From Chloroflexota bacterium (lineage in GTDB: Bacteria; Chloroflexota; Dehalococcoidia; UBA2247; JAUWOP01), in the NCBI GenBank assembly GCA_030612045.1, contig JAUWOP010000002.1, positions 5,894 through 69,893 of the forward strand: DNA of 64,000 nt. The letters run 5' to 3'. Positions 4,417-57,240 of the stretch are shown in pieces. Numbering within the stretch: the stretch's first letter is position 1; each line of letters opens with the position of its first letter. Made by a program: the position numbers and the translations under genes. The notes below the pieces were generated by a model. It made no database searches. It worked only from the letters and a program-made list of their open reading frames with translations, and had not been told where the DNA came from.

Positions 4417-4564
4417 GGAATACTAGAGACAACAAGTGGAAACCGCCGATGGCTCAATTAATGCATAGCGATAACGAGGGTTGCATCTGATTTCCCATTG
4501 GAGTACCTGTTAACAGACTTTGGTTTGCTGTAACCTTCATAGTACCCGAGAAAGAAGCAAACAC

Positions 4565-4770
4565 ACATGGACGGCTGCCCACCAACGAACCATGAAAATA
4601 AGTTGTCATTGCGAGTCTTTTCCCCTTGTCATTGCGAGCAAAGCGAAGCAATCCCATCGCCACTCCCACCGCCGAGGTTGCTTCGGCACTGCGTGCCTCG
4701 CAATGACACACTATGGGGACGCTCCTCGCAATGGCAGATGTGGGGATGAGGCTATTTTCGGAATAAAGAG
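4565..4770. repeat. composite hairpin repeat array: linker module (ggctgcccaccaacgaaccatgaaaata) followed by nested GTCATTGCGAG...CTCGCAATGAC inverted-repeat unit
   Basis: Nearly identical modules recur at 20941-21030, 24817-24960, 30908-31015, 56327-56395 (inverted), 56902-57060 and 61327-61455. Each has an internal GAAGCAATC(T/C)C / GAG(A/G)TTGCTTC hairpin and ends AATGACA(N)ATGGGG. Confidence 0.85.
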
Positions 4771-4839
4771 TTTGCTATTCAGTAGCCTTGTCCTTATGAT
4801 ATAGTTCACTTTTGCGTATAAGAGAAGGGTGTATCAGGG

Positions 4840-6548: not shown

Positions 6549-6840
6549 TAACTACTCAGACAGGATAACAGGATACACATCAGGTAGAGATAGAGACCCT
6601 CCCCCCTCTATCTCTGTTGTTTGGACTGTTAGACAGTTAAACAAGGGGTTGCAACCTCTTGTTCATTTCCTCAGTGTCCTCGGTGAACTCTGTGGCTTAC
6701 CATAGTCGTTGAATGGTTGGGCTGCTGGTTTTGGTTGTCGTTAATCGTTAAAGGTCTTGACGAGTTGCGCAACCCTTTATCCTTCACCGTTCCCTTTCCT
6801 CTGTGAACTCTGTGGCTATCAATTACTGGCTGAGTAGTTA
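6549..6840. repeat. intergenic repeat cluster (family D): GTAACTACTCAG...CTGAGTAGTTAC inverted termini, with internal direct repeats CTCGGTGAACTCTGTGGCT and CTCTGTGAACTCTGTGGCT
   Basis: The GGTAACTACTCAGCC...GATAGCCACAGAG module recurs at 20855-20900, 27805-27835, 52612-52650 and 13990-14003. Confidence 0.7.
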
Positions 6841-8292
6841 CCTTATCTCTTTATGATACCTCTCCAAACCATCTAGCAAAACCCCCAGATTATAGTGGGC
6901 TTCGGCATAGTTCGGATTTACTCTCAATGCCTCCCTGAACTCAGCCTTTGCCTCTTCATACCTCTCCAAATCCTTCCCTAGTAAAATCCCCAGATTATTA
7001 TGGGCTTCGGCATAGTTCGGATTTACCCTCAGTGCCTCTCCGTATTCAGCCTCTGCCTCTTCACATCTCTCCAAATTACTTAACAAAATCCCCAGATTAT
7101 TATGGGTTTCGGCAAGGTCTGGATTTACCCTCAATGCCTCCCTGAACTCAGTCTCTGCCTCTTCACATCTCTCTAAATCCCCTAGCAAATTCCCCAGATT
7201 ACTATGGGCTTCGGCATAGTTCGGATTTATCCTCAATGCTTCCCTGTATTCAGCCTCTGCCTCTTCATGCTTCTCTAAATTCCCTAACAAAACCCCCAGA
7301 TTATTATGGGCTTCGGCAAGGTCTGGATTTATCCTCAATGCTTCCCTGTATTTAGCCTCTGCCTCTTCATGCCTCCCTAGATTCCCTAGCAAATTCCCCA
7401 GATTATTATGGGCTTCGGCATCGTTCGGATTTACTCTCAATGTTTCCCTGAACTCAGCCTCTGCCTCTTCATACCTCTCCAAATCCTTCCCTAGTAAAAT
7501 CCCCAGACTATTATGGGCTTCGGCATAGTTCGGATTTAGCCTCAGTGCCTCTCTGTATTCAGCCTCTGCCTCTTTAAAATCCTCGGCGTAGTAGCAGGCA
7601 TTGCCGCGGTAGAAATGACCCTCTGTGGTGAGATCCTTGATTTTCTTCAGCACCTCTGCCATCACAGCAGCTTCTCTCCTGGCGGCATCCGAAATCCCCT
7701 CCACCTTCCCTACAGTGCTGAGGGAAACAGGGGACTCCACGGCTACCTTTGCCGCCTCCCTAGCTTCTTCAGGCTTGATGCTGATTATGCGGGCTATCTC
7801 ATCTTCTATCTTTTCCATAGCACTCTGGAAGCTTATATTTTTCGTTAGCTCACTTATAATCATTTCCTTATCGGCATCACCGTGGTATGAAAGGATGGTC
7901 GTGCCATTCTTATCAGAAAGGGCTTCAGTAAGGTCTATATGGGCGTTTTTATTTCCAAGGGGGACAACGAACTTCTCCAGTCCGTCCAGCAGTCCCCATT
8001 CATAGGAGATGTTATGTCTCAGCTCATTATAGATGACGATACCGAAGTAGCACCTCCTCATTATCTCCCTGAGTCCCTCATCCGTTTTCACTCCTGCCGA
8101 TATCTCTCTCCCCGTGTGAACCTCAAACCCCCTCCCCTTAAGATAATCTATCAAGATGCGCTCTATCCGGCTTGGATTATCTCCCGATGTAAATGCGAGG
8201 GCTAAGAATACGGACTTGGGGTTAACCCTCTGCTCAGTTTCCATATTAATTCTCCGTCCTCCGTAGCTGCTAATAAAAGGAGAGTTGGTCAA
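6838..8292 (-). CDS. TIR-like (flavodoxin-fold) N-terminal domain protein with nine C-terminal TPR repeats
   Basis: The N-terminus SVFLALAFTSGDN...IERILIDYLKGRGFEVHT...CYFGIVIYNELRHNISYEWGLLDG resembles TIR/DUF1863-type domains. The C-terminus has nine 34-aa repeats of the form NPNYAEAHNNLGxLLGxLERxEEAEAEYREALR. The repeats are near-identical at the DNA level. Confidence 0.55.
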   Translation of the reverse strand: MTNSPFISSYGGRRINMETEQRVNPKSVFLALAFTSGDNPSRIERILIDYLKGRGFEVHTGREISAGVKTDEGLREIMRRCYFGIVIYNELRHNISYEWGLLDGLEKFVVPLGNKNAHIDLTEALSDKNGTTILSYHGDADKEMIISELTKNISFQSAMEKIEDEIARIISIKPEEAREAAKVAVESPVSLSTVGKVEGISDAARREAAVMAEVLKKIKDLTTEGHFYRGNACYYAEDFKEAEAEYREALRLNPNYAEAHNSLGILLGKDLERYEEAEAEFRETLRVNPNDAEAHNNLGNLLGNLGRHEEAEAKYREALRINPDLAEAHNNLGVLLGNLEKHEEAEAEYREALRINPNYAEAHSNLGNLLGDLERCEEAETEFREALRVNPDLAETHNNLGILLSNLERCEEAEAEYGEALRVNPNYAEAHNNLGILLGKDLERYEEAKAEFREALRVNPNYAEAHYNLGVLLDGLERYHKEIR

Positions 8293-11939: not shown

Positions 11940-12605
11940 ATGATGAAGAATAGGCTAAGTGAAGAGACAATCGCTATGCGAGTAGCTAAGGAGATTGAAG
12001 ACGGTTTTTTTATCAATCTAGGGATTGGTATCCCTACTCTGGTCTCCGATTTCGTTCCTGAAGATAGGATGGTGATGTTCCAGTCGGAGAATGGTATTCT
12101 AGGTATGGGGGGACTCTTCCCTGCAGGAGAGGGAGACTTCGACCTGGCTAATATGTCCGGGCAGTCCGTAAAGCTCGTGCCTGGCGCCTCTTTCTTCGAT
12201 TGTGTCTACTCCTTCGACATGATTAGAGGCAAACATCTCGATGCGGCTGTATTGGGGGGATTTCAGGTATCAGAGAAGGGTGACCTGTCGAACTGGATGC
12301 TGAACGAGAGAAAAGTGGGTGGGGTAGGAGGGGCAATGGATGTAGCAGTAGGTGCCAAGAGGCTTTTCATCGCCATGACGCATACTGATAAGAACGGGAA
12401 TGCCAAAATAGTCAAGGAATGCACCCAGCCTGTTACCGCCCAAAGGTGTGTAAACACAATATTTACCGACTTGGCGGTTATTGAGGTAACTGAGGAAGGG
12501 CTATTACTGAAAGAAATAGCCCCCGGTTGGCAGGTAGAGGAGGTTCAAGCACTCACTGAACCCAGGCTTCTAGTAAGTAGCGACCTTAGAGAGATTACCC
12601 TCTAG
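11940..12605 (+). CDS. 3-oxoacid CoA-transferase subunit B
   Basis: ENGxLGxG motif (SENGILGMGG) carrying the catalytic Glu. Confidence 0.8.
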   Translation: MMKNRLSEETIAMRVAKEIEDGFFINLGIGIPTLVSDFVPEDRMVMFQSENGILGMGGLFPAGEGDFDLANMSGQSVKLVPGASFFDCVYSFDMIRGKHLDAAVLGGFQVSEKGDLSNWMLNERKVGGVGGAMDVAVGAKRLFIAMTHTDKNGNAKIVKECTQPVTAQRCVNTIFTDLAVIEVTEEGLLLKEIAPGWQVEEVQALTEPRLLVSSDLREITL

Positions 12606-12750
12606 TGTAGTGTAATTGTAATAACTATACAGTTTGTCATTCCGTGCTTGACACGGAATCCATCCCTGGACCTTCTGGATTCCCGCTTTCGCGGGAATGA
12701 CATGGGGCGCTTCATTGTCGAGTCATTTAGGAGACACTACACTAGAAGTA
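12601..12750. repeat. MITE-like element (family B): perfect 11-bp terminal inverted repeats CTAGTGTAGTG/CACTACACTAG flank a two-hairpin core TGTCATTCCgtg..cacGGAATCC...GATTCCCGCtttcGCGGGAATGACATGGGG
   Basis: A near-identical copy including the flanks lies at 43030-43206. Core variants lie at 57145-57215, 61201-61267 and 25847-25886 (inside a CDS). Confidence 0.8.
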
Positions 12751-13923: not shown

Positions 13924-14005
13924 TAGAGTTATAGAGTTCATAGAGTTATAGAGTTTGTTGAGTTGGGGGGGAACTCAATGAACTCAACAACCTGAGTAGT
14001 TACTG
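13922..14005. repeat. intergenic repeat family C (AGAGTTATAGAGTT tandem motifs + GGGGAACTCAATGAACTCAA)
   Basis: Related copies lie at 20905-20935 and 25003-25090. The element ends in a CCTGAGTAGTTAC family-D fragment. Confidence 0.7.
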
Positions 14006-20059: not shown

Positions 20060-20910
20060 TGCTGGCAGATTCCCACGCTCACCTTGATTGGGATGCCTTT
20101 GACGAGGATAGAGAGCAGGTAATCTCTCGAGCTCGGGAGGCAGGAATAGAGCTTATCCTGACTGTAGGGTGTAACCTGGAATCAAGCCGAACAGCTATCA
20201 GACTGGCGGAGGAGCATCAAGACATTCTGGCTGCTGTGGGCTTTCATCCCAATGATACCACTGGGGTAAAAGAGAGTGATTTGGAAACTCTAGCAGAACT
20301 TTCTCAGCACCCCAGAGTAGTAGCTATCGGTGAAATTGGATTAGATTTCTACAGGGAATGGTCACCGCACGAAACTCAGATTGAGGTATTTCGACACCAG
20401 TTGAGATTAGCTCAAGAAGTAGACCTCCCTGTAGTAATCCACTGCCGTAATGCACACTTAGAGATGTTAGAAATTCTCGACTACTGGGTTAGCCATCTTA
20501 CCTTACATCACAGTAACCATCCCCCAGGAGTTATTCACTGCTTCAGTGGTGATGTCGCCATTGCACAGAGGTACATTAGCCTGGGATTTCTTATATCTCT
20601 AGCGGGACCTGTTACCTATCCTTCTGCTCGTAATACTGTGAAGGTAGCGCAATATTTGCCTCCAGAATCCCTCCTAATAGAGACAGATAGCCCCTTCCTC
20701 GCCCCCCAGGACCATCGTGGCAAACGCAACGAACCAGCCTACCTGACTACTACAGCCAAAAAGGTAGCACAGGTTAGGGAAATGTCTCTCGAATCAGTCT
20801 GTAAATCTACCACCCAAAATGTCCGGTGCCTCCTCCGTCTGGAGGATAAAAACAATGTAACTACTCAGCCGACGATTGATAGCCACAGAGAACACGAAAA
20901 GGGTTATTGA
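20056..20910 (+). CDS. tatD: TatD family metal-dependent hydrolase, with a ~25-aa C-terminal tail encoded by a family-D repeat
   Basis: SHAHLDWDAF...GFHPN...GEIGLDFY is the TatD signature. The ORF is 284 aa, versus ~255 aa typical for TatD. The last ~55 nt (20855-20910) belong to the GTAACTACTCAGCC...GATAGCCACAGAG repeat. Confidence 0.8.
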   Translation: MMLADSHAHLDWDAFDEDREQVISRAREAGIELILTVGCNLESSRTAIRLAEEHQDILAAVGFHPNDTTGVKESDLETLAELSQHPRVVAIGEIGLDFYREWSPHETQIEVFRHQLRLAQEVDLPVVIHCRNAHLEMLEILDYWVSHLTLHHSNHPPGVIHCFSGDVAIAQRYISLGFLISLAGPVTYPSARNTVKVAQYLPPESLLIETDSPFLAPQDHRGKRNEPAYLTTTAKKVAQVREMSLESVCKSTTQNVRCLLRLEDKNNVTTQPTIDSHREHEKGY

Positions 20911-21045
20911 GTTTATAGAGTTCATTGGGTTCATTACGAGCCTTTCCCCTTTGTCATTGCGAGCGAAGCGAAGCAATCTCAGTGGGGGGAGGGGCGATGA
21001 GATTGCTTCGTCGCTAGCGCTCCTCGCAACGACATGGGGATGATG
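20855..21045. repeat. repeat cluster: family D, family C and one GTCATTGCGAG hairpin unit
   Basis: See the family descriptions above. 20941-21030 is a single A-type hairpin. Confidence 0.8.
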
Positions 21046-24799: not shown

Positions 24800-25160
24800 A
24801 GGTAATCGTTCACCTGTGTCATTGCGAGCCCTTTCCCCCTGTCATTGCGAGCGAAGCGAAGCAATCTCATCGTTACTTCCCCCGCCGAGATTGCTTCGGC
24901 ACTGCGTGCCTCGCAATGACAGATTATGGGGACGCTCTTCGCAATGACAGATGTGGGGATCAGTCTATTTTCAGAGCAAAGAATCTCATTGGAGTGGAGA
25001 TGATGAGTTTATAGAGTTTGTAGTGTTATAGAGTTGATGGGGTTGGTGGGGAACTCAATAAACTCAATAAACTCAAAGAACTCATCGAGGGAGGGATGTC
25101 ATTTCGACCGAAGGGAGAAATCTTGAGCGTAAGATTCCTCACATGCGTTCGGAATGACAA
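24800..25160. repeat. dense intergenic repeat array: two nested A-type hairpin units, a family C unit and a degenerate B-type unit (25097-25158)
   Basis: The flank ATCGTTCACCTGTGTCATTGCGAG is shared with the 30903 copy. Confidence 0.85.
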
Positions 25161-25166
25161 TTTGGC

Positions 25167-27866
25167 ATGGGTGATAGGTTACTACGCTTCCTCAAAGCGC
25201 ATAAGCATTATGTATTTGCCCTCTTGATTCAGTTAGCACTGGCAGGATTCTTCTTCAACACCTGGGATGGCTTTGTATTCCTCACCTCCACACAGCAGTT
25301 TTTGGAAGGCATCTCCCCCTATCAGATAGGACTGGAAGCTCCACCATATGTATTCTACTCCCTCTTCGACACTGCGGAGAACTGGTATTCCTACCCACCC
25401 CTGCCCTTGTTCATGTTCTGTATCGGCTATGCCCCCTACTTCTGTCTGGGAGGAGATAGTCTCATCCCAGCACGGATACTTATCAAGCTTACCTTCATTC
25501 TGGGGAACTTGCTCTGTGCCTACCTGGTTTATAGATTCGTTGCCAGGACAAGTTCACAGAAGAGGGCTTCCCATGCAGAGAAATTAATCCTGTATAATCC
25601 CTTTCTCATCTATATCGCAGCAGTATGGGGGATGTTTGATATCTGGATGGTGAACTTCGTGCTGCTAAGTCTACTCTGCCTCCGCGGGAAGAGATGGGTT
25701 AGGGGTGGCATCTGCTTGGGGCTGAGCATTCTTACTAAACCACTGACCCTGATACTTGCTCCTCTTCTCGCTGTCCATGTGTGGAACAAGTCCGATACAA
25801 ATAGAGGCAAAGATAGAGAAAGGGAACACTCAGTCACTTCCTGTCATTCCCGCGAAGGCGGGAATCCAGGTGGGGTGGGACGGTCTCTGTCTCGATTCTC
25901 TATCTTTAAGCCCCTCCTGTTTCTCATCTGTGCCGCAGCTATCTTTATGCTGGTCTCTCTCCCCTTCATACTCCAATCCCCTGATGGATTCATCCACCAG
26001 GTCGTAGGTGAACATGCTGACCGCCCTCCCTTTGGCTGGTCTACCATGCAACTACTCTATGGGGGACAACACCTCAATGATTACTTCAGTATTAGCTTCA
26101 TCCCCTGGCTGCCCTGTTCGACAATTACCATCATTTCCACCGTCCTGATGATAATAGCGGCTGGAATAATCATCCTCTATTACCGCCTGTATCGCCAGCA
26201 GAGCGAAAAGTCGCTTCTGACCATGCTGTTCCTGACAATGTTATGCTTCGTCGTTTTCAGCAAGGGTGTAAGCCCCCAACACCTCGTTATCCCCATTGTC
26301 CTCTCTCTGACTCTTCTTTATGCCTACAGCGATTATAAATTTATACGGCAACGTGAACTCAGCCGCTATTATAAGATTGTTACCTTCTGTGGTCTGGGAG
26401 GAGTCTTCCTCGATGGGGGGCACTTCTTACACTTCCTCCAGCCAGATATTATCCTCTCCCTGACGGGGAAGACCGCCCTGGAGATGGAACAGGTGATAGC
26501 AGGAAGCTTTCCTGCCTCACCATATCTCTACTATGCTCTGACAGGGGCGATAACTCTAGCTTTTATCATCTGCACTGTAGTTATAGCAGCCATCATATTG
26601 TTTCGAGCCCTGGGGGGTATTATCCCCGCTATTGCCAGAAAGAGTGCCGGAGCAGTGCTACGGACAGGTCTGACTTCGAAACGGAGATTGGCTGAAAGGA
26701 TAGTAGCAGTCTTTCTGGTGTGTGCCTTTATTTTCATCCCTCTGTTGGCAGGCGGAGCAGATTTGCGGGGGGCAGAGCGAAACCACCCTCCCCCACCTCC
26801 CCCCTCCTCTTTCTATCGTCAGGATAAGCTTACAGGTGTGCTATATTACTGCTGGTGGAGAAACTCCTCATTTGACCCCACCAGGCAGTGTGATAACTGG
26901 CAGTGGGCAGGACTGACACCTGAGGAGGGCTACTATCACATCAATCAAGCTTACCTCAGAGAAGACATCCTTCAGATGAAACAGTCAGGCATAGACTTCG
27001 CCATAGTTCCCATTTCAGGTGAGATGAGAGAGAGCTACAATGCCTTCGCCATGGCTGCTGAGGAGGAGAACTTCCGCTTTGCTCCTATGATAGAGTTGTA
27101 TAACCTTGATATCGATAGACCCATTGTAGAGAAGGAAGGTCTCGACTCAGTGTCAGAGGTAAAAGAGGATTTACTGGATAAGATAGATGCTGCCCTGGCA
27201 AGAAGGAATTCTCCTGCCTACCTGTGGTATGAGGATAAACCAGTAGTATTCTTGCATCCCGATGTCTACTTTATATCTGAAGGTAACCTGCCCTCACCCT
27301 ATAGCACAGCAGAGTTCTGGCAGGAGATTGAATGCGAGGTAGAGCAAAAATATCATGAGGATATCTTTTGGGTAGCTGACTATAGCAGTTGGCGGGAGAA
27401 GGGAGAAGATATGGCGGTAGCGCCTGACTGTTTTGATGCAGTATTCTTCCGCTCTCCCTCTACAGTATGGGCTAGCAGCAACGGGAATGATTCAGCCCTT
27501 GATACATGGCAGGCGGAGATGCAGAGATTAAAAAGCTACTGCTTAGGGCAAGATATGCCCTATATCACAACAGTCATGCCCTACTATAATGACAAAACCA
27601 TGCGGGAACCAGGAATGGAGATACCCCAGGATATTGGCGGCGATTCTACATACGATTTACTATGGGAAATAGCTCTTGAGGAACGACCAAACCTGATTAT
27701 AATAGCCAGTTGGAATGAATACTTCGAGAGTTCCTGCATCGAGCCTACCCGGGAGTTTGGCACGCTCTTTCTTAACAGAACACAAGACTGGAACAGCAAA
27801 TTTAAAGGTAACTACTCAGCCACAGCCCTGACCTCCAATCATTCTCTGCAAATAGATACTTACTAG
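25167..27866 (+). CDS. large polytopic membrane protein: N-terminal GT-C-like multi-TM glycosyltransferase-like domain, a Pro-rich linker, and a C-terminal soluble glycoside-hydrolase-like domain
   Basis: More than 10 TM helices in the first 520 aa, a PPPPPPSS linker, and a C-terminal ...IIASWNEYFESS motif reminiscent of GH99/TIM-barrel families. Contains an in-frame B-type repeat insertion (25847-25886). The C-terminal tail is encoded by a family-D repeat. Confidence 0.55.
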   Translation: MGDRLLRFLKAHKHYVFALLIQLALAGFFFNTWDGFVFLTSTQQFLEGISPYQIGLEAPPYVFYSLFDTAENWYSYPPLPLFMFCIGYAPYFCLGGDSLIPARILIKLTFILGNLLCAYLVYRFVARTSSQKRASHAEKLILYNPFLIYIAAVWGMFDIWMVNFVLLSLLCLRGKRWVRGGICLGLSILTKPLTLILAPLLAVHVWNKSDTNRGKDREREHSVTSCHSREGGNPGGVGRSLSRFSIFKPLLFLICAAAIFMLVSLPFILQSPDGFIHQVVGEHADRPPFGWSTMQLLYGGQHLNDYFSISFIPWLPCSTITIISTVLMIIAAGIIILYYRLYRQQSEKSLLTMLFLTMLCFVVFSKGVSPQHLVIPIVLSLTLLYAYSDYKFIRQRELSRYYKIVTFCGLGGVFLDGGHFLHFLQPDIILSLTGKTALEMEQVIAGSFPASPYLYYALTGAITLAFIICTVVIAAIILFRALGGIIPAIARKSAGAVLRTGLTSKRRLAERIVAVFLVCAFIFIPLLAGGADLRGAERNHPPPPPPSSFYRQDKLTGVLYYCWWRNSSFDPTRQCDNWQWAGLTPEEGYYHINQAYLREDILQMKQSGIDFAIVPISGEMRESYNAFAMAAEEENFRFAPMIELYNLDIDRPIVEKEGLDSVSEVKEDLLDKIDAALARRNSPAYLWYEDKPVVFLHPDVYFISEGNLPSPYSTAEFWQEIECEVEQKYHEDIFWVADYSSWREKGEDMAVAPDCFDAVFFRSPSTVWASSNGNDSALDTWQAEMQRLKSYCLGQDMPYITTVMPYYNDKTMREPGMEIPQDIGGDSTYDLLWEIALEERPNLIIIASWNEYFESSCIEPTREFGTLFLNRTQDWNSKFKGNYSATALTSNHSLQIDTY

Positions 27867-27957: not shown

Positions 27958-29406
27958 CTATTCTTCCTCAATGTCCTGGTAGATGCTGCTGAACTGGGTC
28001 AGGGCAGATTCGAGGTTGTCGGCAATTTCCCGGGCGAGGATGTCTGGCTCTGGTAAGTTTGCGGAATCCTCAAGGCTTTCATCCTTTAGCCAGAATATGT
28101 CGAGGTTTACCTTGTCCCGTTGCATCAACTCCTCATAAGTGAAAGCTCTAAATCTCTCGGCTTCTTTTCTTTCGTGTCGATTCTGGGGATTGTAGCAGCG
28201 GACAAAATCTAGCAGGTCATCATCTCGCAAGGTATTGGTTTTAAGAGTAAAGTGCATATTGGTTCTAAAATCATATATCCAGAGCTTGTCTGTCCATGGC
28301 TTTTCGCTGCCCGGCTTGCGGTCAAAGAAGAGGACATTTGCCTTGACGCCAGGGCGGTAGAATACACCTGTGGGCAACCTCAAAAGAGTATGAACATCAC
28401 ACTCCTGAAGTAGTTTCATTCTCACTGTCTCACCGGCGCCACCTTCAAAGAGGACATTGTCAGGCACGACTATAGCAGCCCGACCATTAGTCTTGAGGAG
28501 TGTTTTCACATGCTGGAGGAAATTCAATTGTTTATTAGATGTGGTCGCCGAGAAGTCTGGACGTTCATAGACCTGTGATTCCTTATCAGCCTTTCCCTCA
28601 CCATTAACTATGGTGTAGCTGCTTTTCTTGCCGAAGGGCGGATTGGTGAGTACCATATCAAAACGCTCACCGGGGTCAGCTATGAGGCTATCCCCGCTTT
28701 CAACAGGAGTCTCAATCCCATGTAGATAGAGATTCATCACACAGAGTCTGACCACACCATCAACAATATCCTTCCCTCTGAAAGCGTTGAATTTAAGGAA
28801 TTCCTTCTGGTCTATGTCCAGGTTATTGTGTTTGGGGATATAGTCATAGGCTGCCAGCAAAAAGCCACCTGTGCCACAGGCAGGGTCGCAAATAATCATT
28901 TCCGGCTCAGGTCTCATAGCCTCAACAATAGCTTTGATGAGAGCCCTAGGGGTGAAATACTGCCCAGCGCCGCTCTTAACATCCTCGGCGTTCTTCTGCA
29001 GAAGACCCTCATATATCTCCCCTTTGACATCGACATCCAGCCCAACCCAGGTTTCGGCATTGATAAGTTCAATAAGGCGCTTGAGCTTGGCTGGGTCTTG
29101 AATCCTGCTTTGAGATTTGCGAAAGATAATGCCGAGCATACCGCTCTCTTTGCTCAGGGACTCAAGGATAAGACGGTAATGAGCCTCCAGGGCGGCTCCA
29201 TCCCTCTCCCGCAGGCTTAGCCAATCAAAGCCCATGGGAATGGTTGAGGGCTTGTTGAAAGGATGCCTGGTCTGTTCATCAGCCATCTTCAGAAACAGCA
29301 GGTAAGTTAGCTGTTCCACATAGTCGCCATAGCTTACACCGTCATCACGAAGCACATGGCAGTAGTTCCACACTTTTGAGACAATTGTCGATGATTCATT
29401 GGGCAT
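27958..29406 (-). CDS. hsdM: type I restriction-modification system methyltransferase subunit
   Basis: HsdM N-terminal domain and N6-adenine MTase motif DMVLTNPPFGKK (NPPF). Confidence 0.9.
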   Translation of the reverse strand: MPNESSTIVSKVWNYCHVLRDDGVSYGDYVEQLTYLLFLKMADEQTRHPFNKPSTIPMGFDWLSLRERDGAALEAHYRLILESLSKESGMLGIIFRKSQSRIQDPAKLKRLIELINAETWVGLDVDVKGEIYEGLLQKNAEDVKSGAGQYFTPRALIKAIVEAMRPEPEMIICDPACGTGGFLLAAYDYIPKHNNLDIDQKEFLKFNAFRGKDIVDGVVRLCVMNLYLHGIETPVESGDSLIADPGERFDMVLTNPPFGKKSSYTIVNGEGKADKESQVYERPDFSATTSNKQLNFLQHVKTLLKTNGRAAIVVPDNVLFEGGAGETVRMKLLQECDVHTLLRLPTGVFYRPGVKANVLFFDRKPGSEKPWTDKLWIYDFRTNMHFTLKTNTLRDDDLLDFVRCYNPQNRHERKEAERFRAFTYEELMQRDKVNLDIFWLKDESLEDSANLPEPDILAREIADNLESALTQFSSIYQDIEEE

Positions 29407-29879
29407 TAGCCACTATTTCCCCTCAAACTTTGATCTATATACTCAACTTTCAAAAACACACCATTAAGGTGGTCAAAATCATGGTCTGTTGTTAAAAGCA
29501 AAGCGTTAATCACCGAACCTGTAGCAGCAATCCATATATCATTCTTACCCATATTTCGTGAAGATACCCCTTGAAGTAGTTTTTTTGAGGGATGTTTGCC
29601 CTGGCTATACGCATCAATTTCTGCATACTTCTCCAATATCTGATGGTCACCAATGTCAGCGAAAGGGATTTTTCCTAAGATGTCCCCGATCTTTCGCTTT
29701 TTTTCTTCACTCCACCCAAATTGTAGAGATACAGAATAGATTTCCCCAACTGTTACCACAGAAATAAGTGCAATATTGGGTGGCATGGATACCCCAAAAC
29801 GCTTCTCTACATACTCGGCGTAGCCTGCCCCTCGCACATAGCCCAGAATGATGCCCGTATCTAGGAGGTAAGTAGTCAT
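29406..29879 (-). CDS. PIN-domain nuclease (VapC-like)
   Basis: LLDTGIIL at the N-terminus and LLTTDHDF near the C-terminus give the PIN acidic residues. 157 aa. Confidence 0.7.
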   Translation of the reverse strand: MTTYLLDTGIILGYVRGAGYAEYVEKRFGVSMPPNIALISVVTVGEIYSVSLQFGWSEEKKRKIGDILGKIPFADIGDHQILEKYAEIDAYSQGKHPSKKLLQGVSSRNMGKNDIWIAATGSVINALLLTTDHDFDHLNGVFLKVEYIDQSLRGNSG

Positions 29880-30835
29880 AAGGTTTCTACGGATGCCTGC
29901 CTCAATACAGAAAGAATTTCGTCAATTGATTCTTCTCCTGGCCACTGTCCCCAAATCTCCGTCAGCGGGCTTTTGGTGCCTTGCTTTCTTTTCAATTCCT
30001 CGATTAACCTGTGAGGTGACTTTGATTCCGTAATATTCTGGAATATCTCCTCTCCAACCTCAAATGGTTTGATTATTTGTGCTTCAATAAAGCGCACCTT
30101 ACGGGAGGCATTGAAGTGAGCCGTCCCTTTAATCGTGACCTTCTTCCCCCAGAGACCTCTCATTTTCCCCTCTGTAATTAAGGGTGAGTCTGCCCTCCCA
30201 CGTACCTTTTGACCGTCTTCTAACTCAAGTTGGAACTGCCTCCGAGCATGTTCAATCAAATCGAATAAACCTGCAACGACAATAGCGTGAGACTGCGGTG
30301 TTTCTGTCTCCATGTGGCTTATCTTCTCTAACTCTTCGCGCCCTATCTTGAAATTATCCCTTTCCCTGATCTTGGAATTTACCTCAAGCTCACTCATGTA
30401 TTTCTTAAGAGGAGATCTGAAAGAGAGCAGAGCGTTTAACACTCCTCGGTCATAGTATTCGCTTTCCAATTGCTCGGAGGTTGCATCTGATACTGACCTG
30501 GAAAGCAAGGACATCGCAGTATCTTCCGGATTGGGCAGTGTATACCAAAGGGTCTGCTGCTGAACCTGTTCGGGGGCTGATTCTGCCAAAGTCGGCGCTT
30601 CAATCTCCAGTACTGTTGAGCCTTTACTGATTCCGGCAATCGTGAATTCAAGGGATTTACTTAACCATTCTGGATTCTTTCCTCTTTTCACGCTCCTGCC
30701 TTCGATCGAAAGGCGTAGTGCTCGTTCGCATCCCTGCAAAAGTGTATCAGAGATATCCCTGAGAGCTCTCAGGGGGATAGTGCCTTCTGGCGTTTTAAGC
30801 CCGGTAATTCTAATCGTGTAATGGATGCCGTTCAC
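29876..30835 (-). CDS. hypothetical protein (319 aa), immediately upstream of and overlapping the PIN gene
   Basis: Long ORF with good codon usage and no recognisable motif. Overlaps the PIN ORF by 4 nt (29876-29879). Confidence 0.5.
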   Translation of the reverse strand: MNGIHYTIRITGLKTPEGTIPLRALRDISDTLLQGCERALRLSIEGRSVKRGKNPEWLSKSLEFTIAGISKGSTVLEIEAPTLAESAPEQVQQQTLWYTLPNPEDTAMSLLSRSVSDATSEQLESEYYDRGVLNALLSFRSPLKKYMSELEVNSKIRERDNFKIGREELEKISHMETETPQSHAIVVAGLFDLIEHARRQFQLELEDGQKVRGRADSPLITEGKMRGLWGKKVTIKGTAHFNASRKVRFIEAQIIKPFEVGEEIFQNITESKSPHRLIEELKRKQGTKSPLTEIWGQWPGEESIDEILSVLRQASVETL

Positions 30836-30902
30836 TTTCTGCCACCCCCTCTTTATTCTACCCTAACTCACAGTGCCTGTCCCCTTTTTGCCTTCTCCTC
30901 CC

Positions 30903-31015
30903 TTGTGATCGTTCACCTGTGTCATTGCGAGCGAAGCGAAGCAATCTCGTTCTCCCCTTACCGAGATTGCTTCGTCGCTACGCTCCTCGCAATGACATGA
31001 GAGCGGGTGAACGGT
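30903..31015. repeat. A-type hairpin unit with outer CGTTCACC...GGTGAACG inverted flanks
   Basis: It overlaps the 3' end of hsdS and supplies its last residues (...MSLRGA) and stop codon. Confidence 0.8.
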
Positions 31016-32495
31016 TACCCTCCCTTATCCTTTCCAGCAGCTTGTCAGCAGGTTCGTCGCTGGGGTCTTGAGGAACCAGTTTACCCTCAAAGGCTCTCTT
31101 TAGAATACTCTGGCGCAATCTTACCGACTGCTTGAGGCTCTGGTCAACGGCTTTTCCTATCTCATCAGCTACCGAAAGGCGGCGCTCGATTTCCTCAACG
31201 ATTTTGTGTTGTTCGGTGAATGAGGATAATGGAAGTGGAAGGATTCGCAGGTGTTCGAGAGGAATGAACTTCTGTGTCGTTCCCTTCGAAAGTTTCCCCT
31301 TTTCCAATATCTCATTGAATGTCCAGCTTGCCAACCAAAACTTGAGGTATTTTGACCTGAGAAAGGATTGATTCTTCTTAAATAACCCCACGTTTTTAAT
31401 ACTAAAGAGCCTGTCTGTCTGAACTACTACAGGATTTCCCACCGTTCCTATCATTGCAAAGAGTATGTCCCCATTCTCAACCCCAGAACGTACACTAATT
31501 TTTTTGTGGTCTTCGATGCTAATATTCTTGGTCGTTGTGAAGTCTAAGCCATCTTCTTTGAGGTTTTTTGATGTCACCAACGGGATTCCCTCTTCAACAT
31601 ACCTAGGGGTATCGTGTGTACCATCTCTTACAGAAGAACAAACATCACTTGTTATCGTCCACACCCACCCCTCTGGCAAATCGGGCAAATCGGATGTATC
31701 CAATGACGGAAGTTCTTTGTATTTGCCCTGGGCATTTTTTGGGTGTTCTCTCTTGATGCGCTCCAGGAGCGCGGAGGCGGGCTCCAGTTCTCCCTTGTGG
31801 TCCTCTCGCCACTCCTGCGTCAGTTTTCCCTGGAAGGCATCCCTCAAAACTGCCTGGCGGTAGCGTTTTAACTGAGCCTTTATTTTCTTCAGCGCCGCTA
31901 CCCCGGCATCCAGCCTGGTGAAAAGCCCCTCAATCCTGGCAACGATGCGGTGCTGCTCAGGGAGGGGCGGGAGAGGGATGGGAATTTGGTGCATATAATG
32001 AACTGGCACCCTTAATTGACCTGCAGAGCCTGTCATATTTCTTTGGGCATCCCTTCTGAGGTCTTCTCGTATCAAAAAGAAGAAGAGCAACTTCCTTGGA
32101 AATGATTCAGGCAATCTGATAACATGGAACTCAGTTGAACCGAAACCGATACCGTTTTTCAAACCATGAGCTATTGCCACTTTCCCGTTTTCCATACAAG
32201 GTGTAATTTTGGCAAAAAGTAAGTCACCCTCTATGAATGGTGTATACCCTTTTTTTACTTCTGATAATCTCCTCGTAAAGAATAAATTGAGATGTCCTGT
32301 TAATTCCTCAACGCATTTCATCGGTAGAAATGCAACTTCTGTGTCGTCTGTGAGATATTCGCCTGTAAATTTCGGATTGATTTCTGCAATCTCCCCCAAC
32401 CTCATCCACACCCACCCCTTAGGCAATTGACGAGTGTTCACTCCTTCATCTCCTACGCTGCTAGCTCTTGAATATGTTCGTCCCGGCAACTCCAC
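30978..32495 (-). CDS. hsdS: type I restriction-modification system specificity subunit
   Basis: Two target-recognition domains, each followed by a conserved PLPPLPEQHRIV / LPLPLSSFTEQHKIV coiled-coil repeat. The true start may be the internal MRLGEIAEI (~32405). Confidence 0.85.
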   Translation of the reverse strand: MELPGRTYSRASSVGDEGVNTRQLPKGWVWMRLGEIAEINPKFTGEYLTDDTEVAFLPMKCVEELTGHLNLFFTRRLSEVKKGYTPFIEGDLLFAKITPCMENGKVAIAHGLKNGIGFGSTEFHVIRLPESFPRKLLFFFLIREDLRRDAQRNMTGSAGQLRVPVHYMHQIPIPLPPLPEQHRIVARIEGLFTRLDAGVAALKKIKAQLKRYRQAVLRDAFQGKLTQEWREDHKGELEPASALLERIKREHPKNAQGKYKELPSLDTSDLPDLPEGWVWTITSDVCSSVRDGTHDTPRYVEEGIPLVTSKNLKEDGLDFTTTKNISIEDHKKISVRSGVENGDILFAMIGTVGNPVVVQTDRLFSIKNVGLFKKNQSFLRSKYLKFWLASWTFNEILEKGKLSKGTTQKFIPLEHLRILPLPLSSFTEQHKIVEEIERRLSVADEIGKAVDQSLKQSVRLRQSILKRAFEGKLVPQDPSDEPADKLLERIREGNRSPALMSLRGA

Positions 32496-33220
32496 AGGAT
32501 ATCTTTCACATCATATCGACGAAGGGCATTGATAAGGTCTGGATTTAACGGGCGTTCGGTATCATTTAGGACCGCATAGGCAGTAGATTCGGGCAGTCTT
32601 ACCTTTTTGGTATCAGTCCATGCAAAGATAAGCGTTGTGATACTCTGACGGTCAGGCCGATTAATGGCTCTGAGTACTCTTTCAGGTTTTACACGGGAGG
32701 CAGGAATTACGAAGTCGAAAGAATTGTCCAAGCCGCTTTTTCCGGTGAATTTGACTGAAGGGGTAAAGCGAATATCATGGGCACGCAGATATGTCTCAAC
32801 ATCTTCTCGAAAAATACTCATCACCATTGGGGCAGCCATCACAAAGAGGTCATTTATTGCGAGCATGGCTTGAATCAGGTTGTGTTTCTTCTGCGGAAAG
32901 TTATCAGGGCGTGCCTCTACAATAAGCTCCTCACCCTGAAGACGAACTCCAAAGCCATTTAAAACAGCATTAAGCATCTGCCGTCTCTTCTCCGTCGTGA
33001 ACTCACATCCACTCAAGCGGAGGTCTCGGATAATGTAGCCATCGTCTGTGAGGGTAAATCCCTCTTTAGACCGCTTGATATATATCTGTAGATAGTCATT
33101 GTGACGGTCAACAAAGGGAGTGGTAATCTCACAAACACCATCTATATCCTGAATACTCATCTTTTGACCAAGCCATCTAATATAGACTTGAACAAGATCA
33201 CTGCACTCATTTGAAATCAT
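32453..33220 (-). CDS. hypothetical protein (255 aa) embedded between hsdR and hsdS
   Basis: ORF with no recognisable catalytic motif. Its start overlaps the upstream ORF stop (ATGA, 33217-33220). Confidence 0.5.
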   Translation of the reverse strand: MISNECSDLVQVYIRWLGQKMSIQDIDGVCEITTPFVDRHNDYLQIYIKRSKEGFTLTDDGYIIRDLRLSGCEFTTEKRRQMLNAVLNGFGVRLQGEELIVEARPDNFPQKKHNLIQAMLAINDLFVMAAPMVMSIFREDVETYLRAHDIRFTPSVKFTGKSGLDNSFDFVIPASRVKPERVLRAINRPDRQSITTLIFAWTDTKKVRLPESTAYAVLNDTERPLNPDLINALRRYDVKDILWSCRDEHIQELAA

Positions 33221-33714
33221 AGCAACCTCCTTTGAATCAAAGGCTGTTCAATAACATTACAAAATCGAAAGAAGTCCTCAAGAGTTGAAAACAGATCGTT
33301 TGTTTGGGGGAACTTATTGCTTGGTGCTGGAATTGCCCACTTATCCATAAATCCTTCCACATATAAGTGAAGATGAGGGGTTGGTAAGGTGACACCATTA
33401 TAAGGTTCGAGGAAAGAAAGTGGCACTGCCTCAACTTCTGGATTCGGGTGAGGGGAACCATCTACATCCAACCGCACAAGGATGAATGTGCCTTGATACC
33501 GTTCTTGATATGAGCATTTTGTCAGTCGAATTTGACCTCTGTTTACATCTATTAGGAAAGTCTCTATCTCATCAGTTGAAACAATGGGAATGACTAAAGA
33601 GCTCCCTGGGTAGGGGAAGAAATAGTTCTCGTTTCTGGCTCTTTTTTTTGGCATCTTTATTAAGAAATCTGCTTCACTCTGCGAAGGCATTCTGCTCCTT
33701 CCTAATTTGCTCAA
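33217..33714 (-). CDS. hypothetical protein (165 aa) embedded between hsdR and hsdS
   Basis: ORF starting 7 nt after the hsdR stop, translationally coupled to the next ORF. Confidence 0.45.
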   Translation of the reverse strand: MSKLGRSRMPSQSEADFLIKMPKKRARNENYFFPYPGSSLVIPIVSTDEIETFLIDVNRGQIRLTKCSYQERYQGTFILVRLDVDGSPHPNPEVEAVPLSFLEPYNGVTLPTPHLHLYVEGFMDKWAIPAPSNKFPQTNDLFSTLEDFFRFCNVIEQPLIQRRLL

Positions 33715-33720
33715 TTTGCT

Positions 33721-36468
33721 TCATGCTACCAGCACCTTATTCAGCTCTTCTAGAATACTGTCCAGCTCATGTTCGAAGAGATTGTATGCCTTTATTGCTC
33801 CACCCTTCCCAGCAAATGGCGTAAGCTCAAAGTGGTCTATGCTGATGCTTAAAGAAGCAGCGATGTGGTATTTTATCATCTCCAGCCACTCCATCTGCTC
33901 TGGGGTAAATTCTCGTCCTAAGCTCGCCTGCTCGGAAATCCATTCATTGAATCGCTTATCTACTGTCTCAGAGAAGGGTTCCAGCACATCAGTTTCCCCT
34001 ACAGCAAAGCGTATGAGTGAGATGATATTGGTTAGGAGTTTCTGGGTTCCAGCGTCCCTGACCTTGGAGCTCTCCAAATGTTCATAAGCCTGCCACAATA
34101 GCTCAGGTGTAAGATTATAAGGTGGCTTTTTGATAGCACTGGCAAGCTGCTTTATCTCCTGGTAGGTCAAACGGCGCTTGCTGTAAGGCTTACTATAAAT
34201 CACCTGCAAAGCGGTAAGCTCGTCCTTGTTCTCCTCTATGAATTTGTGAAAGGTATCAACGATGGTTCGAGCCTTTTCTTTCGCCTGAGCATCAAAGCCA
34301 GCAAAAATTAGCTTGTCCTGACTCACGGTATCAATAACCTGCTCACTTTCTCTCTTGAGGTCAATGAGCATATCACGCAGTTTAGGATTATCAAAGGGAC
34401 TGCAAGCAATTGTAGTCAGTTCATTACTAGCTTTCTTAACCTGTTCCTCTGTGGGTGCTTCTGTGTTGAAGAGCTCTTTCGCCTTATCTATTTGCTTGTC
34501 CGGGTCAACGGCGTCCAGCAAGCTATTGGTGAGCTGTTTTGGAGATATACCCCCTGTGGCACTTTGGATTTGCTGGCGGTCTTCTTCCTCAATCTCCTTA
34601 TCCAGTTGAGCGAGTCTTCCTGCCAGAGAAGTGAGCATGTCCTCATCTCTATTACCCAGAGCAACGGACATAAGCAGCTTATCGAAGGGGAGACTCTTGT
34701 TCCTTTCCAGAGGTTGGGAGTCTTGTTTCTCATTCTCGCACACGCCGACGGCATCCACGATTACGAAATTTGTCTTGTGAGATGCATCCGGGGTAACGGC
34801 GTTAAAATCCGTGGGCAGGATTGTCCTGCTGCCGCGTCCTTTCATCTGCTCAAACAGCAGCCGAGATTTAACATCTCTCATAAAGATGATGCACTCCAGA
34901 GGTCTAATATCGGTCCCGGTAGCAATCATATCCACTGTCACCGCGATGCGGGGATGATACGAGTTACGAAAGCTGGTAATCAGGTCCTCGGGCTTCTCGG
35001 TCTTGTAGGTTATCTTCTTACAGAGTTCATTTCCCTTACCGAATTCCTCCCTCACAATATGGACAATATCCTCAGCATGGGAATCGCTCTTGGCAAAGAT
35101 TAGGGTTTTGGGGACCTCAGTCCTGCCGGGGAATATCTCGGTAAAGAGTTTCTCCTTGAAGGTTTTGACCACTGTTCTTATCTGGTCTGGAGCAACTATG
35201 CTGCGGTCGAGTTGCTCTGGGGGGTAATCGAGAGCCTCATCCAACTGCTCCCAGCGGATTTGCCTGGTGAGCTTGTTTCGCTTATCTATATAATAGTCTG
35301 CTTTTATGGTGCTTCCCTCTTTGGTAATCTTTGTCTGGATGAGGTAAACATCGTAGCCTACATTAACGCCATCTGCCACAGCCCGCTCGTGGCTGTATTC
35401 CATAACCAGGTTCTGATTGAAAAAGCCCAGGGTTTGCTTTGATGGAGTTGCGGTGAGTCCGATAATAAAGGCATCAAAATACTCCAGCACCTGACGCCAG
35501 AGGTGATATATTGAGCGGTGACATTCATCGGTGATGATGAAGTCAAAGGTCTCAATGGGGATAGCGGGGTTATAGGAGATTTCTTTCGGTGGAAGAACTC
35601 CCAGTGGCATGCTGGGGAGAGACTGTTCCTCAAGCTCGGCATCAAAGTCTGGCTCTCCCTTGAGCATGGAATAGAGCCGCTGTATGGTGGTGATACAAAC
35701 TCGACTTACTGGGTCCAGGGTATTAGAGGTAACATGCTGGATATTATAGAGCTCAGTAAATTTCCTGCCGTCATCGGGTGTATCATATTGCTGGAACTCC
35801 CTTCTTGTTTGGCGGCCCAGGTTACTCCTATCAACAAGGAAGAGAACCCTTTTAGCATTGGCGAACTTTATCAGACGGTAAACAGAGCTCACGGCGGCAT
35901 AGGTCTTACCAGTTCCCGAGGTCATCTGGATAAGCGCTCGCGGCCTTTCCCCTGCAAAGGATTCCTCAAGATTTCCAATCGCCTCAATTTGGCAATCCCT
36001 CAATCTGTCAGTTTTTAGCGGAGGCATAGTTTTGAGTCTGGCTCTGAGAGTGTCCTGCTGAGTTAGCCATTCATTAAGCGTTTCGGGACGATGAAAGCTA
36101 AACACCCTTCGAGAGCGGGGTGCTGGGTCTCTTAAATCTCTGAAGGAGGTTTCTGTGCCTGTGCTCTCATAAACAAAGTGAAGAGGCTCCTGGACATGGG
36201 GGAGATTTTCAGGGGAAGCTGTTGAGTATTTTCCAGACTGTTCAGCTACACCACTTAAGGTAGTACCGACTGGTTTAGCCTCCACAACCCCAACAGCTTT
36301 TCTGTCAACAAAAAGGACATAATCAGCCGTTCCAGATTTCAGGGGAAATTCACGGACGGCTACTCCTGGAGAAGCTCCGAGATTCAGTTGCCGCAGGTCC
36401 TGAACAGCCCAACCGGCAGTCTCCAGCATCTGGTCAATCCTTTGTCTTGCCTTTTCCTCTGGTTTCAT
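33721..36468 (-). CDS. hsdR: type I restriction enzyme R subunit (helicase-nuclease)
   Basis: N-terminal nuclease domain, SF2 helicase motifs MTSGTGKT (Walker A) and DECHRS (DEAH), and a C-terminal domain. 915 aa. Confidence 0.9.
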   Translation of the reverse strand: MKPEEKARQRIDQMLETAGWAVQDLRQLNLGASPGVAVREFPLKSGTADYVLFVDRKAVGVVEAKPVGTTLSGVAEQSGKYSTASPENLPHVQEPLHFVYESTGTETSFRDLRDPAPRSRRVFSFHRPETLNEWLTQQDTLRARLKTMPPLKTDRLRDCQIEAIGNLEESFAGERPRALIQMTSGTGKTYAAVSSVYRLIKFANAKRVLFLVDRSNLGRQTRREFQQYDTPDDGRKFTELYNIQHVTSNTLDPVSRVCITTIQRLYSMLKGEPDFDAELEEQSLPSMPLGVLPPKEISYNPAIPIETFDFIITDECHRSIYHLWRQVLEYFDAFIIGLTATPSKQTLGFFNQNLVMEYSHERAVADGVNVGYDVYLIQTKITKEGSTIKADYYIDKRNKLTRQIRWEQLDEALDYPPEQLDRSIVAPDQIRTVVKTFKEKLFTEIFPGRTEVPKTLIFAKSDSHAEDIVHIVREEFGKGNELCKKITYKTEKPEDLITSFRNSYHPRIAVTVDMIATGTDIRPLECIIFMRDVKSRLLFEQMKGRGSRTILPTDFNAVTPDASHKTNFVIVDAVGVCENEKQDSQPLERNKSLPFDKLLMSVALGNRDEDMLTSLAGRLAQLDKEIEEEDRQQIQSATGGISPKQLTNSLLDAVDPDKQIDKAKELFNTEAPTEEQVKKASNELTTIACSPFDNPKLRDMLIDLKRESEQVIDTVSQDKLIFAGFDAQAKEKARTIVDTFHKFIEENKDELTALQVIYSKPYSKRRLTYQEIKQLASAIKKPPYNLTPELLWQAYEHLESSKVRDAGTQKLLTNIISLIRFAVGETDVLEPFSETVDKRFNEWISEQASLGREFTPEQMEWLEMIKYHIAASLSISIDHFELTPFAGKGGAIKAYNLFEHELDSILEELNKVLVA

Positions 36469-43029: not shown

Positions 43030-43206
43030 TTTTGGTAAGTAGTGTAGTGTAATCGTAATAACTATACAGTTTGTCATTCCGTGCTTGACACGGAATCCAT
43101 CCCCTAGACCTTCTGGATTCCTGCTGGAGTTTACCCCGTACTTGATACGGGGCAGGAATGACATGGGGTACCCTATTGTCAGGTCATTTAAGAGACACTG
43201 CACTAG
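43030..43206. repeat. MITE-like family-B element (second full copy with TIRs TAGTGTAGTG / CACTGCACTAG)
   Basis: Identical flanks and core to 12601-12750, plus an extra internal hairpin CCCCGTActtgaTACGGGG. Confidence 0.8.
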
Positions 43207-43217
43207 AATATTTGAGT

Positions 43218-56218: not shown

Positions 56219-56326
56219 GAGAAGGCTGTTCTCAGGTAAGCACCTTTTAGAAGGCTGTTGACACAGCTAAATTAGGTTATTCTGATTATAGCATCTTGCA
56301 AAAATAACCGTATTATGTCATTGCGA

Positions 56327-56395
56327 GGAGCGCTAGCGAGATTGCTTCGCTTTGCTCGCAATGACAACCTATTTTCATGATTCGTCGGTGAGCAG
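56327..56395. repeat. A-type hairpin + linker module in inverted orientation
   Basis: GTCATTGCGAGgagcgctagcGAGATTGCTTCGctttgCTCGCAATGAC, then CCTATTTTCATG (reverse complement of CCATGAAAATAGG). Confidence 0.8.
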
Positions 56396-56935: not shown

Positions 56936-57240
56936 AAATAGGCTGTCATTGCGAGCGAAGCGAAGCAATCTCGGTGGGGCGGCGATGAGATTGCTTCGTC
57001 GCTACGCTCCTCGCAATGACACATTATGGGGGCGTGCCTCGCAATGACAAATGTGGGGTCAGTCTATTTTCGGAATAAACACTCATGGGCGGCTGCCCAC
57101 CAACGAACCATGAAAATAGTGCTTCCTTGCAACGACTTTGCCTGTCATTCCTGCGGAAGCAGGAATCCATGTGGGGTGGGTGTAGATTCCCGCCTGCGCG
57201 GGAATGACATAGTCTATTTTCGAAGCAAAGAGTGTGAATC
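56902..57240. repeat. 340-bp repeat array: linker, nested A-type hairpin unit, linker (CTATTTTCGGAATAAACACTCATGGGCGGCTGCCCACCAACGAACCATGAAAATAG), B-type two-hairpin unit, linker
   Basis: Same module order (in a different arrangement) as 61195-61455. Confidence 0.85.

Follow-up and report, generated by a model that had tools for sequence, protein, structure and literature searches.

A hairpin repeat fitting the CGTC-1 definition lies in frame in a predicted loop of a membrane glycosyltransferase from a Dehalococcoidia-like Chloroflexota

Palindromic repeats inserted in frame in protein-coding genes were first described as the Rickettsia palindromic elements (RPEs) (Ogata 2000, Science 290:347, as summarised in PMC10969869 and PMC3733652), and a later survey of repetitive extragenic palindromes (REPs) listed intragenic copies of GTAG and CGTC REPs in several species, in hosts that include uvrA/B, recB, dnaE, truB and tRNA synthetases, the authors arguing that most of these copies are neutral and lie in linkers or loops (Di Nocera 2013, BMC Genomics 14:522, PMC3733652). 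Here we describe a copy of a CGTC-type hairpin from a Chloroflexota metagenome-assembled genome (MAG), in a stretch of 64,000 nucleotides (assembly GCA_030612045.1, contig JAUWOP010000002.1, positions 5,894 to 69,893) the whole of which is referred to as the window, where the hairpin lies in frame within the open reading frame (ORF) 25167-27866 of a membrane glycosyltransferase. In-frame intragenic copies of this cross-phylum repeat family are already known; what is new is the host lineage, which is Dehalococcoidia-like, the context of a membrane-protein loop, and a pair of unexplained arms, 62 nt in all, that carry a 12-nt inverted repeat.

The family has been described from several directions. 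CGTC-1 REPs are defined by a tag CGTC (TGTC or CCTC in many units), an 8-bp stem, a 4-nt loop and a CCA tail, and have been equated with the dRS3 repeat of Neisseria and with RPE-6 of Rickettsia conorii (Di Nocera et al. 2013, PMC3733652). The same hairpin is known as NTS, at which SsnA binds and cuts; SsnA is a single-domain nuclease of the GIY-YIG type that acts specifically on single-stranded DNA (ssDNA), its role as shown in Neisseria being to modulate transformation, and single-domain GIY-YIG genes of the cd10448 type typically have the motif in their flanks (Chenal et al. 2025, PMC11893778). The copy described here joins these three literatures, on RPE-6, on dRS3/NTS and on CGTC-1, on one 28-nt hairpin. 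The features of the host gene and its insert are as follows.

25167 to 27866, + strand: host gene ORF, 899 amino acids (aa), membrane glycosyltransferase with a GH99-like domain
25797 to 25898, + strand: in-frame insertion of 102 nt (34 aa, T211-F244), placed by protein alignment, with boundaries uncertain by a few codons
25809 to 25907, + strand: alternative delimitation of the insert, 99 nt, bounded by a 12-nt inverted repeat
25809 to 25820, + strand: left arm of the inverted repeat, AAAGATAGAGAA, within the left insert arm 25797-25839
25896 to 25907, + strand: right arm of the inverted repeat, TTCTCTATCTTT, overlapping codons S245-I246-F247
25842 to 25869, + strand (the coding strand): hairpin of the CGTC-1 REP / NTS type, read directly and fitting the published CGTC-1 definition
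25842 to 25845: tag of the hairpin, TGTC
25846 to 25853: first half of the stem, ATTCCCGC
25854 to 25857: loop, GAAG
25858 to 25865: second half of the stem, GCGGGAAT
25866 to 25868: tail, CCA, followed by G
25870 to 25879, + strand: spacer GTGGGGTGGG, in common with the B-unit dimer 57143-57210 (BLAST against the window)
57143 to 57210, + strand: reference B unit, a pair of CGTC-type hairpins in inverted orientation with TGTGGGGTGGGTG between them

That the gene carries an insertion is seen by comparison of the protein with its homologs. A protein search in a set of 5.8 billion proteins returned 30 homologs, the best of them 45% identical, and an alignment of the host protein with 23 homologs (34-48% identity) was made with MAFFT, giving 24 sequences. 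In this alignment 34 residues, T211-F244, are unique to the window protein, with the same 34-column gap in all 23 homologs and with no other length variation at this loop; the loop strings, which were extracted for 19 of the homologs, are all of five residues. The insert is flanked by W206-N-K-S-D on one side and S-I-F-K248-P on the other, and reads ...SCHSREGGNPGGVG... with neither a stop codon nor a frameshift. An assembly artefact is an unlikely source, since the insert recurs without change in an independent assembly of this organism at ENA (ERZ4220937 NODE_444, loci L001/L003), and since an insert-bearing product of 880 aa is recorded at NCBI and ENA on three contigs, the longest of 73.9 kb.

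Within the insert the sequence CTGTCATTCCCGCGAAGGCGGGAATCCAGGTGGGGTGGG at 25841-25879 holds the hairpin, which by its sequence is a CGTC-1 REP: it has the unpaired tag, a perfect 8-bp stem that starts with complementary A and T, the 4-nt loop and the CCA tail, it is recovered when the region is folded as DNA, and the repeat is multi-copy, mostly intergenic and often found as inverted dimers within the 64 kb of the window. It agrees with the NTS consensus CGTCATTCCCGCGMAVGCGGGAATCYRG at 27 of 28 bases, the sole mismatch being the first base, and on the coding strand it keeps the positions that are reported to be critical for SsnA, namely the C after the palindrome for binding and the GTC before the palindrome for cleavage. 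The dRS3 pattern ATTCCC-N8-GGGAAT fits it exactly, and it is matched by the degenerate SRM pattern, which has three matches in the window where 0.46 would be expected from mononucleotide shuffles. Taken by itself the hairpin has 96% identity to 12675-12702 on the minus strand, whilst the segment 25840-25879 is 87.5% identical over 40 nt to 57141-57180, which is the first hairpin and spacer of the B unit, and 92.5% identical over 40 nt to two of the 120 loci fetched from other genomes (L014 and L054, by BLAST). The end of the repeat-derived part is accordingly placed at 25879, or at about 25884 if one Dehalococcoidia locus is taken as the guide. A preliminary description of this DNA had reported the in-frame insertion of half a B unit into a membrane-protein gene, and this is borne out as the segment is translated without a stop codon and consists of one hairpin followed by the GGTGGGGTGGG spacer, the second and inverted hairpin being absent.

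The repeat is widespread well beyond this organism. The exact 27-mer GTCATTCCCGCGAAGGCGGGAATCCAG is found unchanged in at least 120 genome assemblies (loci L004-L123) from more than ten phyla, the matches listed including Pseudomonadota, Desulfobacterota, Planctomycetota, Patescibacteria, Nitrospirota, Gemmatimonadota, Omnitrophota and Actinomycetota as well as ten assemblies of Dehalococcoidia/Chloroflexota, and no match to it was found in shuffles of the window. Its flanks differ completely between genomes, so that the conserved unit elsewhere is of about 28 nt. A census of ORFs covered 147 occurrences of the 27-mer in the fetched loci, and in four proteins, an isoleucyl-tRNA synthetase (IleRS), TruB, HsdM and an Eco57I-like methylase, the copy is in frame with Pfam domains on both sides. 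The copies are listed here together with one in an ORF that has no Pfam match.

L040, 1642 to 1769: in-frame dimer in IleRS of the Rickettsia endosymbiont of Polydrusus tereticollis
L018, about 1690: in-frame dimer in TruB of a Pseudomonadota MAG
L067, about 3374: in-frame copy in HsdM of Pseudomonas saliphila
L072, about 1321: in-frame copy in an Eco57I-like methylase
L084, about 1621: in-frame copy in an Omnitrophota ORF of 992 aa without a Pfam match

The reading frame ..HSREGGNP.. is common to the copies in IleRS, HsdM and the methylase and to the copy in the window, and the peptides encoded by these copies had no match in the literature searched. Sizing of the HsdM insert of L067 against the HsdM that is encoded in the window was dropped as the C-termini are too divergent, and alignments to PDB structures were used instead. 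The statement in the preliminary description that such insertions are rare outside Rickettsia was overstated, given the species with intragenic REPs in PMC3733652 and the 27-mer within ORFs of four other genomes.

Among the closest of the described systems are the REPs of Di Nocera et al. (PMC3733652), which have the same architecture, a mostly intergenic location, frequent inverted dimers and occasional in-frame copies. That survey found CGTC repeats in five phyla, mainly in alpha-Proteobacteria, and mentions Chloroflexi for GTAG repeats alone; the hosts of its intragenic copies were mostly DNA repair and replication proteins and RNA enzymes, and its inserts, where dimeric, encode about 20-30 aa, whereas the window copy is a singlet within 34 aa, in a polytopic membrane glycosyltransferase from a Dehalococcoidia-like host. 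As far as the parts of the Rickettsia literature summarised in the sources above go, the RPEs are alike in being in-frame palindromes in housekeeping proteins that are absent from orthologs and compatible with the fold, RPE-6 being CGTC-1 by the statement of PMC3733652; they differ in that they occur as dozens of intragenic copies in an obligate intracellular alpha-proteobacterium, and here the 64 kb from a Chloroflexota MAG of free-living type contain one. In the features by which RPEs are recognised the window copy is similar to them, as the element is lineage-specific when set against orthologs, the frame is preserved and the position in a loop is compatible with the fold, the side of the membrane being taken from charge parity. 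The dRS3/NTS repeats of Neisseria and the NIME arrays (Bentley 2007, PMC1797815; PMC11893778) share with the window the hairpin consensus, intergenic mosaics that are NIME-like and the nucleotides reported to be critical for SsnA; however the NTS papers describe intergenic copies and leave intragenic ones unmentioned, and no ssn gene is visible in the 64-kb window. Finally the REPIN/RAYT system is built of a GTAG-tagged REP doublet mobilised by a REP-associated tyrosine transposase, where the copy in this gene has a TGTC tag and is a singlet.

The host product combines an N-terminal polytopic glycosyltransferase of the GT-C fold (GT87 / MptA_B / ALG6-like) with a C-terminal GH99-like domain. 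This assignment follows from weak Pfam matches taken together with structural ones: Alg6_Alg8 is above its cut-off (27.6 vs 25), and GT87 (24.7 vs 25), GH99 (29.8 vs 33) and GH71 (29.0 vs 34) are just under theirs, whilst in searches with Foldseek the C-terminal domain finds structures of GH99 endo-mannosidases (E ~3e-9) and the membrane domain finds the GT-C enzymes ALG6, ArnT and GPI-mannosyltransferase I. The ORF is of full length, with about 650 codons downstream of the insert that are open and conserved. The public gene call starts at TTG 25224 and gives 880 aa, dropping 19 N-terminal residues; as the first 19 residues counted from ATG 25167 can be aligned to the N-terminal ends of the homologs, including a conserved K-H-Y, the alignment suggests that ATG 25167 is probably the true start and that the public record truncates the protein. 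A hairpin dimer stops 8 nt before this ATG, and no Shine-Dalgarno sequence is evident there.

An AlphaFold model of the host protein, made from the 24 aligned sequences, has a mean predicted local distance difference test (pLDDT) score of 79.9. Averaged over each ten residues from 201 to 260 the scores are 93, 65, 58, 47, 75 and 95, so that the insert forms a stretch of low pLDDT between two confident helices (192 to about 210, and 247-270), and in the model it sits in the loop between transmembrane helices 6 and 7 (TM6 and TM7). The ortholog alignment and the position in a loop were the two checks proposed in the preliminary description, and the outcome of each agrees with an insertion. This loop is probably cytoplasmic, on the opposite side to the catalytic W33-D34-G35 loop, as judged from the count of helices and from positive-inside charge parity from TM4 onward. 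Loops predicted to be inside are those with GKR and YSDYKFIR and the K/R-rich loop 479-505, those predicted to be outside are the conserved D/E-rich loops 271-316 and 417-451 together with the GH99 domain, and loop 127-144 does not obey the positive-inside rule. The insert itself is hydrophilic, with a mean Kyte-Doolittle value of -1.5, seven K+R and four D+E, and a net charge of about +3.

It would seem probable, if by no means settled, that a selfish CGTC-1 REP copy landed in the coding sequence of this GT-C/GH99 glycosyltransferase and has been tolerated as an in-frame insert located in a loop. A copy of a hairpin repeat that is spread throughout the genome would have entered the gene by the same process that spreads hairpins between genes, which may be based on ssDNA and Ssn-type GIY-YIG nucleases or on recombination with the nearby arrays. 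Three things could account for its survival: with 102 nt the insert adds a whole number of codons, five of the six frames of the hairpin are free of stop codons, and the place of entry would be a short hydrophilic TM6-TM7 loop that is probably cytoplasmic and far from the extracytoplasmic W33-D34-G35 loop. Purifying selection would then keep only an event that was in frame and in a loop, leaving the protein with a charged and probably disordered loop extension of 34 residues. Most likely the insert is a passenger, either neutral or slightly deleterious, and not a functional module, and the finding reveals no new mechanism. What it does is to add a deep-branching lineage of Chloroflexota, and a polytopic enzyme of the membrane, to the cases of selfish palindromes translated within essential proteins that were known from Rickettsia and Proteobacteria; in this enzyme a loop without length variation in 23 homologs tolerates a sevenfold extension.

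A number of observations weigh against this explanation. The preliminary description took the segment for a repeat insertion, and both the insertion and the family hold, but only 40 of the 102 inserted nucleotides (25840-25879) are derived from the repeat and about 21 of the 34 inserted amino acids are not, and because of this a single-event insertion of a REP fails to explain the whole insert. The other 62 nt (25797-25839 and 25880-25898) have no match in the window or in the 120 loci, and zero matches were returned for the junction of left arm and hairpin in genome_contigs and for the left arm in metagenome_contigs, both being collections without the source genome; the arms are therefore not a widespread module. 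No direct repeat of more than 4 nt that could be a target-site duplication is present at offsets of 96-107 nt, and no Ssn or GIY-YIG homolog was found in the 64-kb window with a motif regular expression or by tblastn with the Ssn-like ORF of L098. An empty-site allele or a close relative was sought through look-ups of the exact protein and listings of clusters, and these gave only the same organism, always with the insert; the 90%-identity protein clusters that were looked up hold only this organism, the next glycosyltransferase homolog being 45% identical and the next methionyl-tRNA synthetase (MetRS) 73%, where the named MetRS homologs at about 70% identity come from Dehalococcoidia or Chloroflexota MAGs. 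With no close relative there is no empty site and no dating, and one event is inseparable from several. A protein search with the 47-aa insert peptide gave no candidates, the cluster representative of the 880-aa protein being a 457-aa fragment without the region. Furthermore, whilst 150 of the 167 highly conserved columns show the consensus residue in the host protein, a figure within the homolog range (74-99%), it lies at the divergent end of that range, and the 17 positions at which the protein departs include three prolines and one glycine, so that constraint on the gene may be relaxed.

An alternative that deals with the arms is that the 99-nt segment 25809-25907 is one mobile unit, either like a miniature inverted-repeat transposable element (MITE) or a long palindrome comparable to Rickettsia RPE-1, whose apex is formed by the CGTC-1 hairpin; such a unit would have arrived in one step without a target-site duplication, in an ancestral loop SDTNRG that is one residue longer than the loop of the homologs. 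The segment is bounded by an inverted repeat that was reported in the preliminary description as 9 bp (GATAGAGAA at 25812-25820 and TTCTCTATC at 25896-25904), those bases being present as part of what is really a perfect repeat of 12 bp. This repeat bounds exactly 99 nt, or 33 codons, with the loop of the hairpin within about 3 nt of the centre of the segment, and when the two 60-nt flanks were shuffled 20,000 times with their composition preserved, an inverted repeat of at least 12 nt between them appeared in 13 cases. Consistent with a single unit, the region 25795-25915 folds as ssDNA into one long hairpin (z = -4.6). We nevertheless regard the one-unit explanation as unlikely, since no second copy of the arms or of the repeat pair was found in the window, the 120 loci, genome_contigs or metagenome_contigs, with about 74 kb of the source genome covered. 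The competing history would be a REP singlet joined by growth of the loop as a separate matter. The right arm may furthermore be partly ancestral host sequence, as I246-F247 fit the pattern x-[ILM]-x-K-P of the homologs, in which a hydrophobic residue precedes K-P. The lack of a target-site duplication and the complete difference of the 27-mer flanks between genomes, which leaves a conserved unit of only about 28 nt, also speak against it. A gapped pattern for the 12-nt inverted-repeat pair had one match in metagenome_contigs, L124, which was rejected as a second copy as it is an unrelated AT-rich palindrome without the hairpin. Matches by eye of the 7-of-9 type, to a second decayed hairpin in the right arm or to a reversed one in the left arm, were rejected as insignificant.

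Set beside MITEs, the segment has the terminal inverted repeats, though at 12 nt they are shorter than the usual 15-30 bp, and it has no target-site duplication, nor were the multiple full-length copies that mark MITEs found in the collections and the roughly 74 kb of the source genome covered. Intragenic MITEs such as ERIC (Delihas 2007, in the account given by PMC10969869) are alike in being small repeats with inverted-repeat ends that form a translational fusion in a host ORF. It could also be imagined that the 99-nt segment is a vehicle for the hairpins, a long-palindrome element that moves via ssDNA like IS200/IS605 or in the manner speculated for Ssn, which we consider quite improbable. 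If it were true it would address the cross-phylum spread of CGTC REPs, which "apparently lack a dedicated transposase", and it would follow that a functional site for cleavage by Ssn now lies on the coding strand of the gene for an envelope glycosyltransferase.

There is also a doubtful case, to which we give little credence, for the hairpin being kept for a function, either as a site of ssDNA breakage or recombination control in an envelope-glycan gene or, as RNA, as a site of ribosome pausing or processing between membrane helices. The in-gene hairpin is the best NTS match in the window, tied with 12675-12702 at one mismatch each, its stem is perfect, and it retains the nucleotides critical for SsnA on the coding strand according to the published specificity (PMC11893778); moreover the gene has as neighbours a large array of hairpins and a locus for type I restriction-modification. 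Elsewhere Ssn-like GIY-YIG ORFs (Pfam GIY-YIG, E 2e-15) adjoin the 27-mer, in agreement with the published NTS-ssn association, at the following places.

L098, 498 to 785: Ssn-like ORF
L052, 1642 to 1926: Ssn-like ORF
L092, 3134 to 3277: Ssn-like ORF, with an internal stop codon
L050, 1 to 195: Ssn-like ORF

The distance from the 27-mer to the ORF is 21-46 nt in L092, L050 and L098, and an NCBIfam scan of the Ssn-like ORF matched no family. Against a function stand the lack of a visible ssn gene in the 64-kb window, the fact that a recent insertion equally predicts an intact hairpin, and the occurrence of intragenic REPs in unrelated proteins and at unrelated sites, which the authors of PMC3733652 read as evidence against functional constraint. 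There is likewise little to suggest a role in RNA, as the hairpin is not followed by a run of T, a terminator scan made one terminator-like call near the insert at chance level, and no Rfam family matched at the hairpin, the only Rfam matches in the window being four tRNAs.

Finally, that there was no repeat insertion at all, the segment being a chance or ancestral peptide, an assembly chimera or part of a pseudogene that happens to stay open, is very improbable and largely refuted: an open frame alone does prove little because a random 102-nt insertion would be free of stop codons with a chance of about 0.2 ((61/64)^34), and the 17 departures from consensus could be held in its favour, but at least 120 genomes contain the 27-mer and the shuffles never do, the insert is missing from 23 of 23 homologs and identical in an independent assembly, and the codons downstream are open and conserved.

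The window as a whole is rich in repeats of this kind, with about 26 TGTC-tagged hairpins of two main types at about ten intergenic sites, arranged in NIME-like mosaics, and with five hairpins of the dRS3 pattern besides the one described above, which is the only copy in the window inside a real gene. The dimers and mosaic sites are these.

57143 to 57210: the reference B unit listed above; further dimers at 61201 to 61268, 12635 to 12703 and about 43072 to 43164
24800 to 25160: mosaic array of TGTC-tagged hairpins directly upstream of the host gene, its last dimer ending 8 nt before ATG 25167
4554 to 4772: mosaic site
12603 to 12747: mosaic site
20908 to 21016: mosaic site
30899 to 30997: mosaic site
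43040 to 43208: mosaic site
56315 to 56365: mosaic site
56894 to 57234: mosaic site
61201 to 61463: mosaic site

Besides the type with ATTCC..GGAAT a second abundant hairpin type, TGTCATTGCGAGCGAAGCGAAGCAATC, is present, which falls outside the published SRM pattern and has the TGTCATT head in common with the first. The arrays at 56894-57234 and 61201-61463 are similar composites, each with a B-unit dimer and a module of about 50 nt, GAAGCAAACACTCATGGGCGGCTGCCCACCAACGAACCATGAAAATAG, and they flank a segment of about 4 kb with three ORFs (57244-61123) that could be an array-bounded cassette. Periodic repeats rich in TAGAGTT, with a period of about 8-9 nt and ending in GGGGAACTCAATGAACTCAA, lie beside arrays at 13924-13993, 20908-20931 and 25000-25073. 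In practical terms inserts of this sort break assemblies, and the short Logan contigs of the source organism stop at the array upstream of the glycosyltransferase gene.

Directly downstream of the host gene is the type I restriction-modification locus (27958-36468, minus strand), which encodes HsdM, a PIN protein, a 319-aa protein without a Pfam hit, HsdS, DUF1828/1829, DUF6978 and HsdR; the array at 30899-30997 is inside this locus, just downstream of hsdS and before the gene for the 319-aa protein. Elsewhere in the window a 484-aa ORF at 6838-8292 on the minus strand contains, at 6856-7574, tandem repeats with a period of 102 nt, of which there are at least five units that are 82-91% identical, suggesting a repeat-domain protein.

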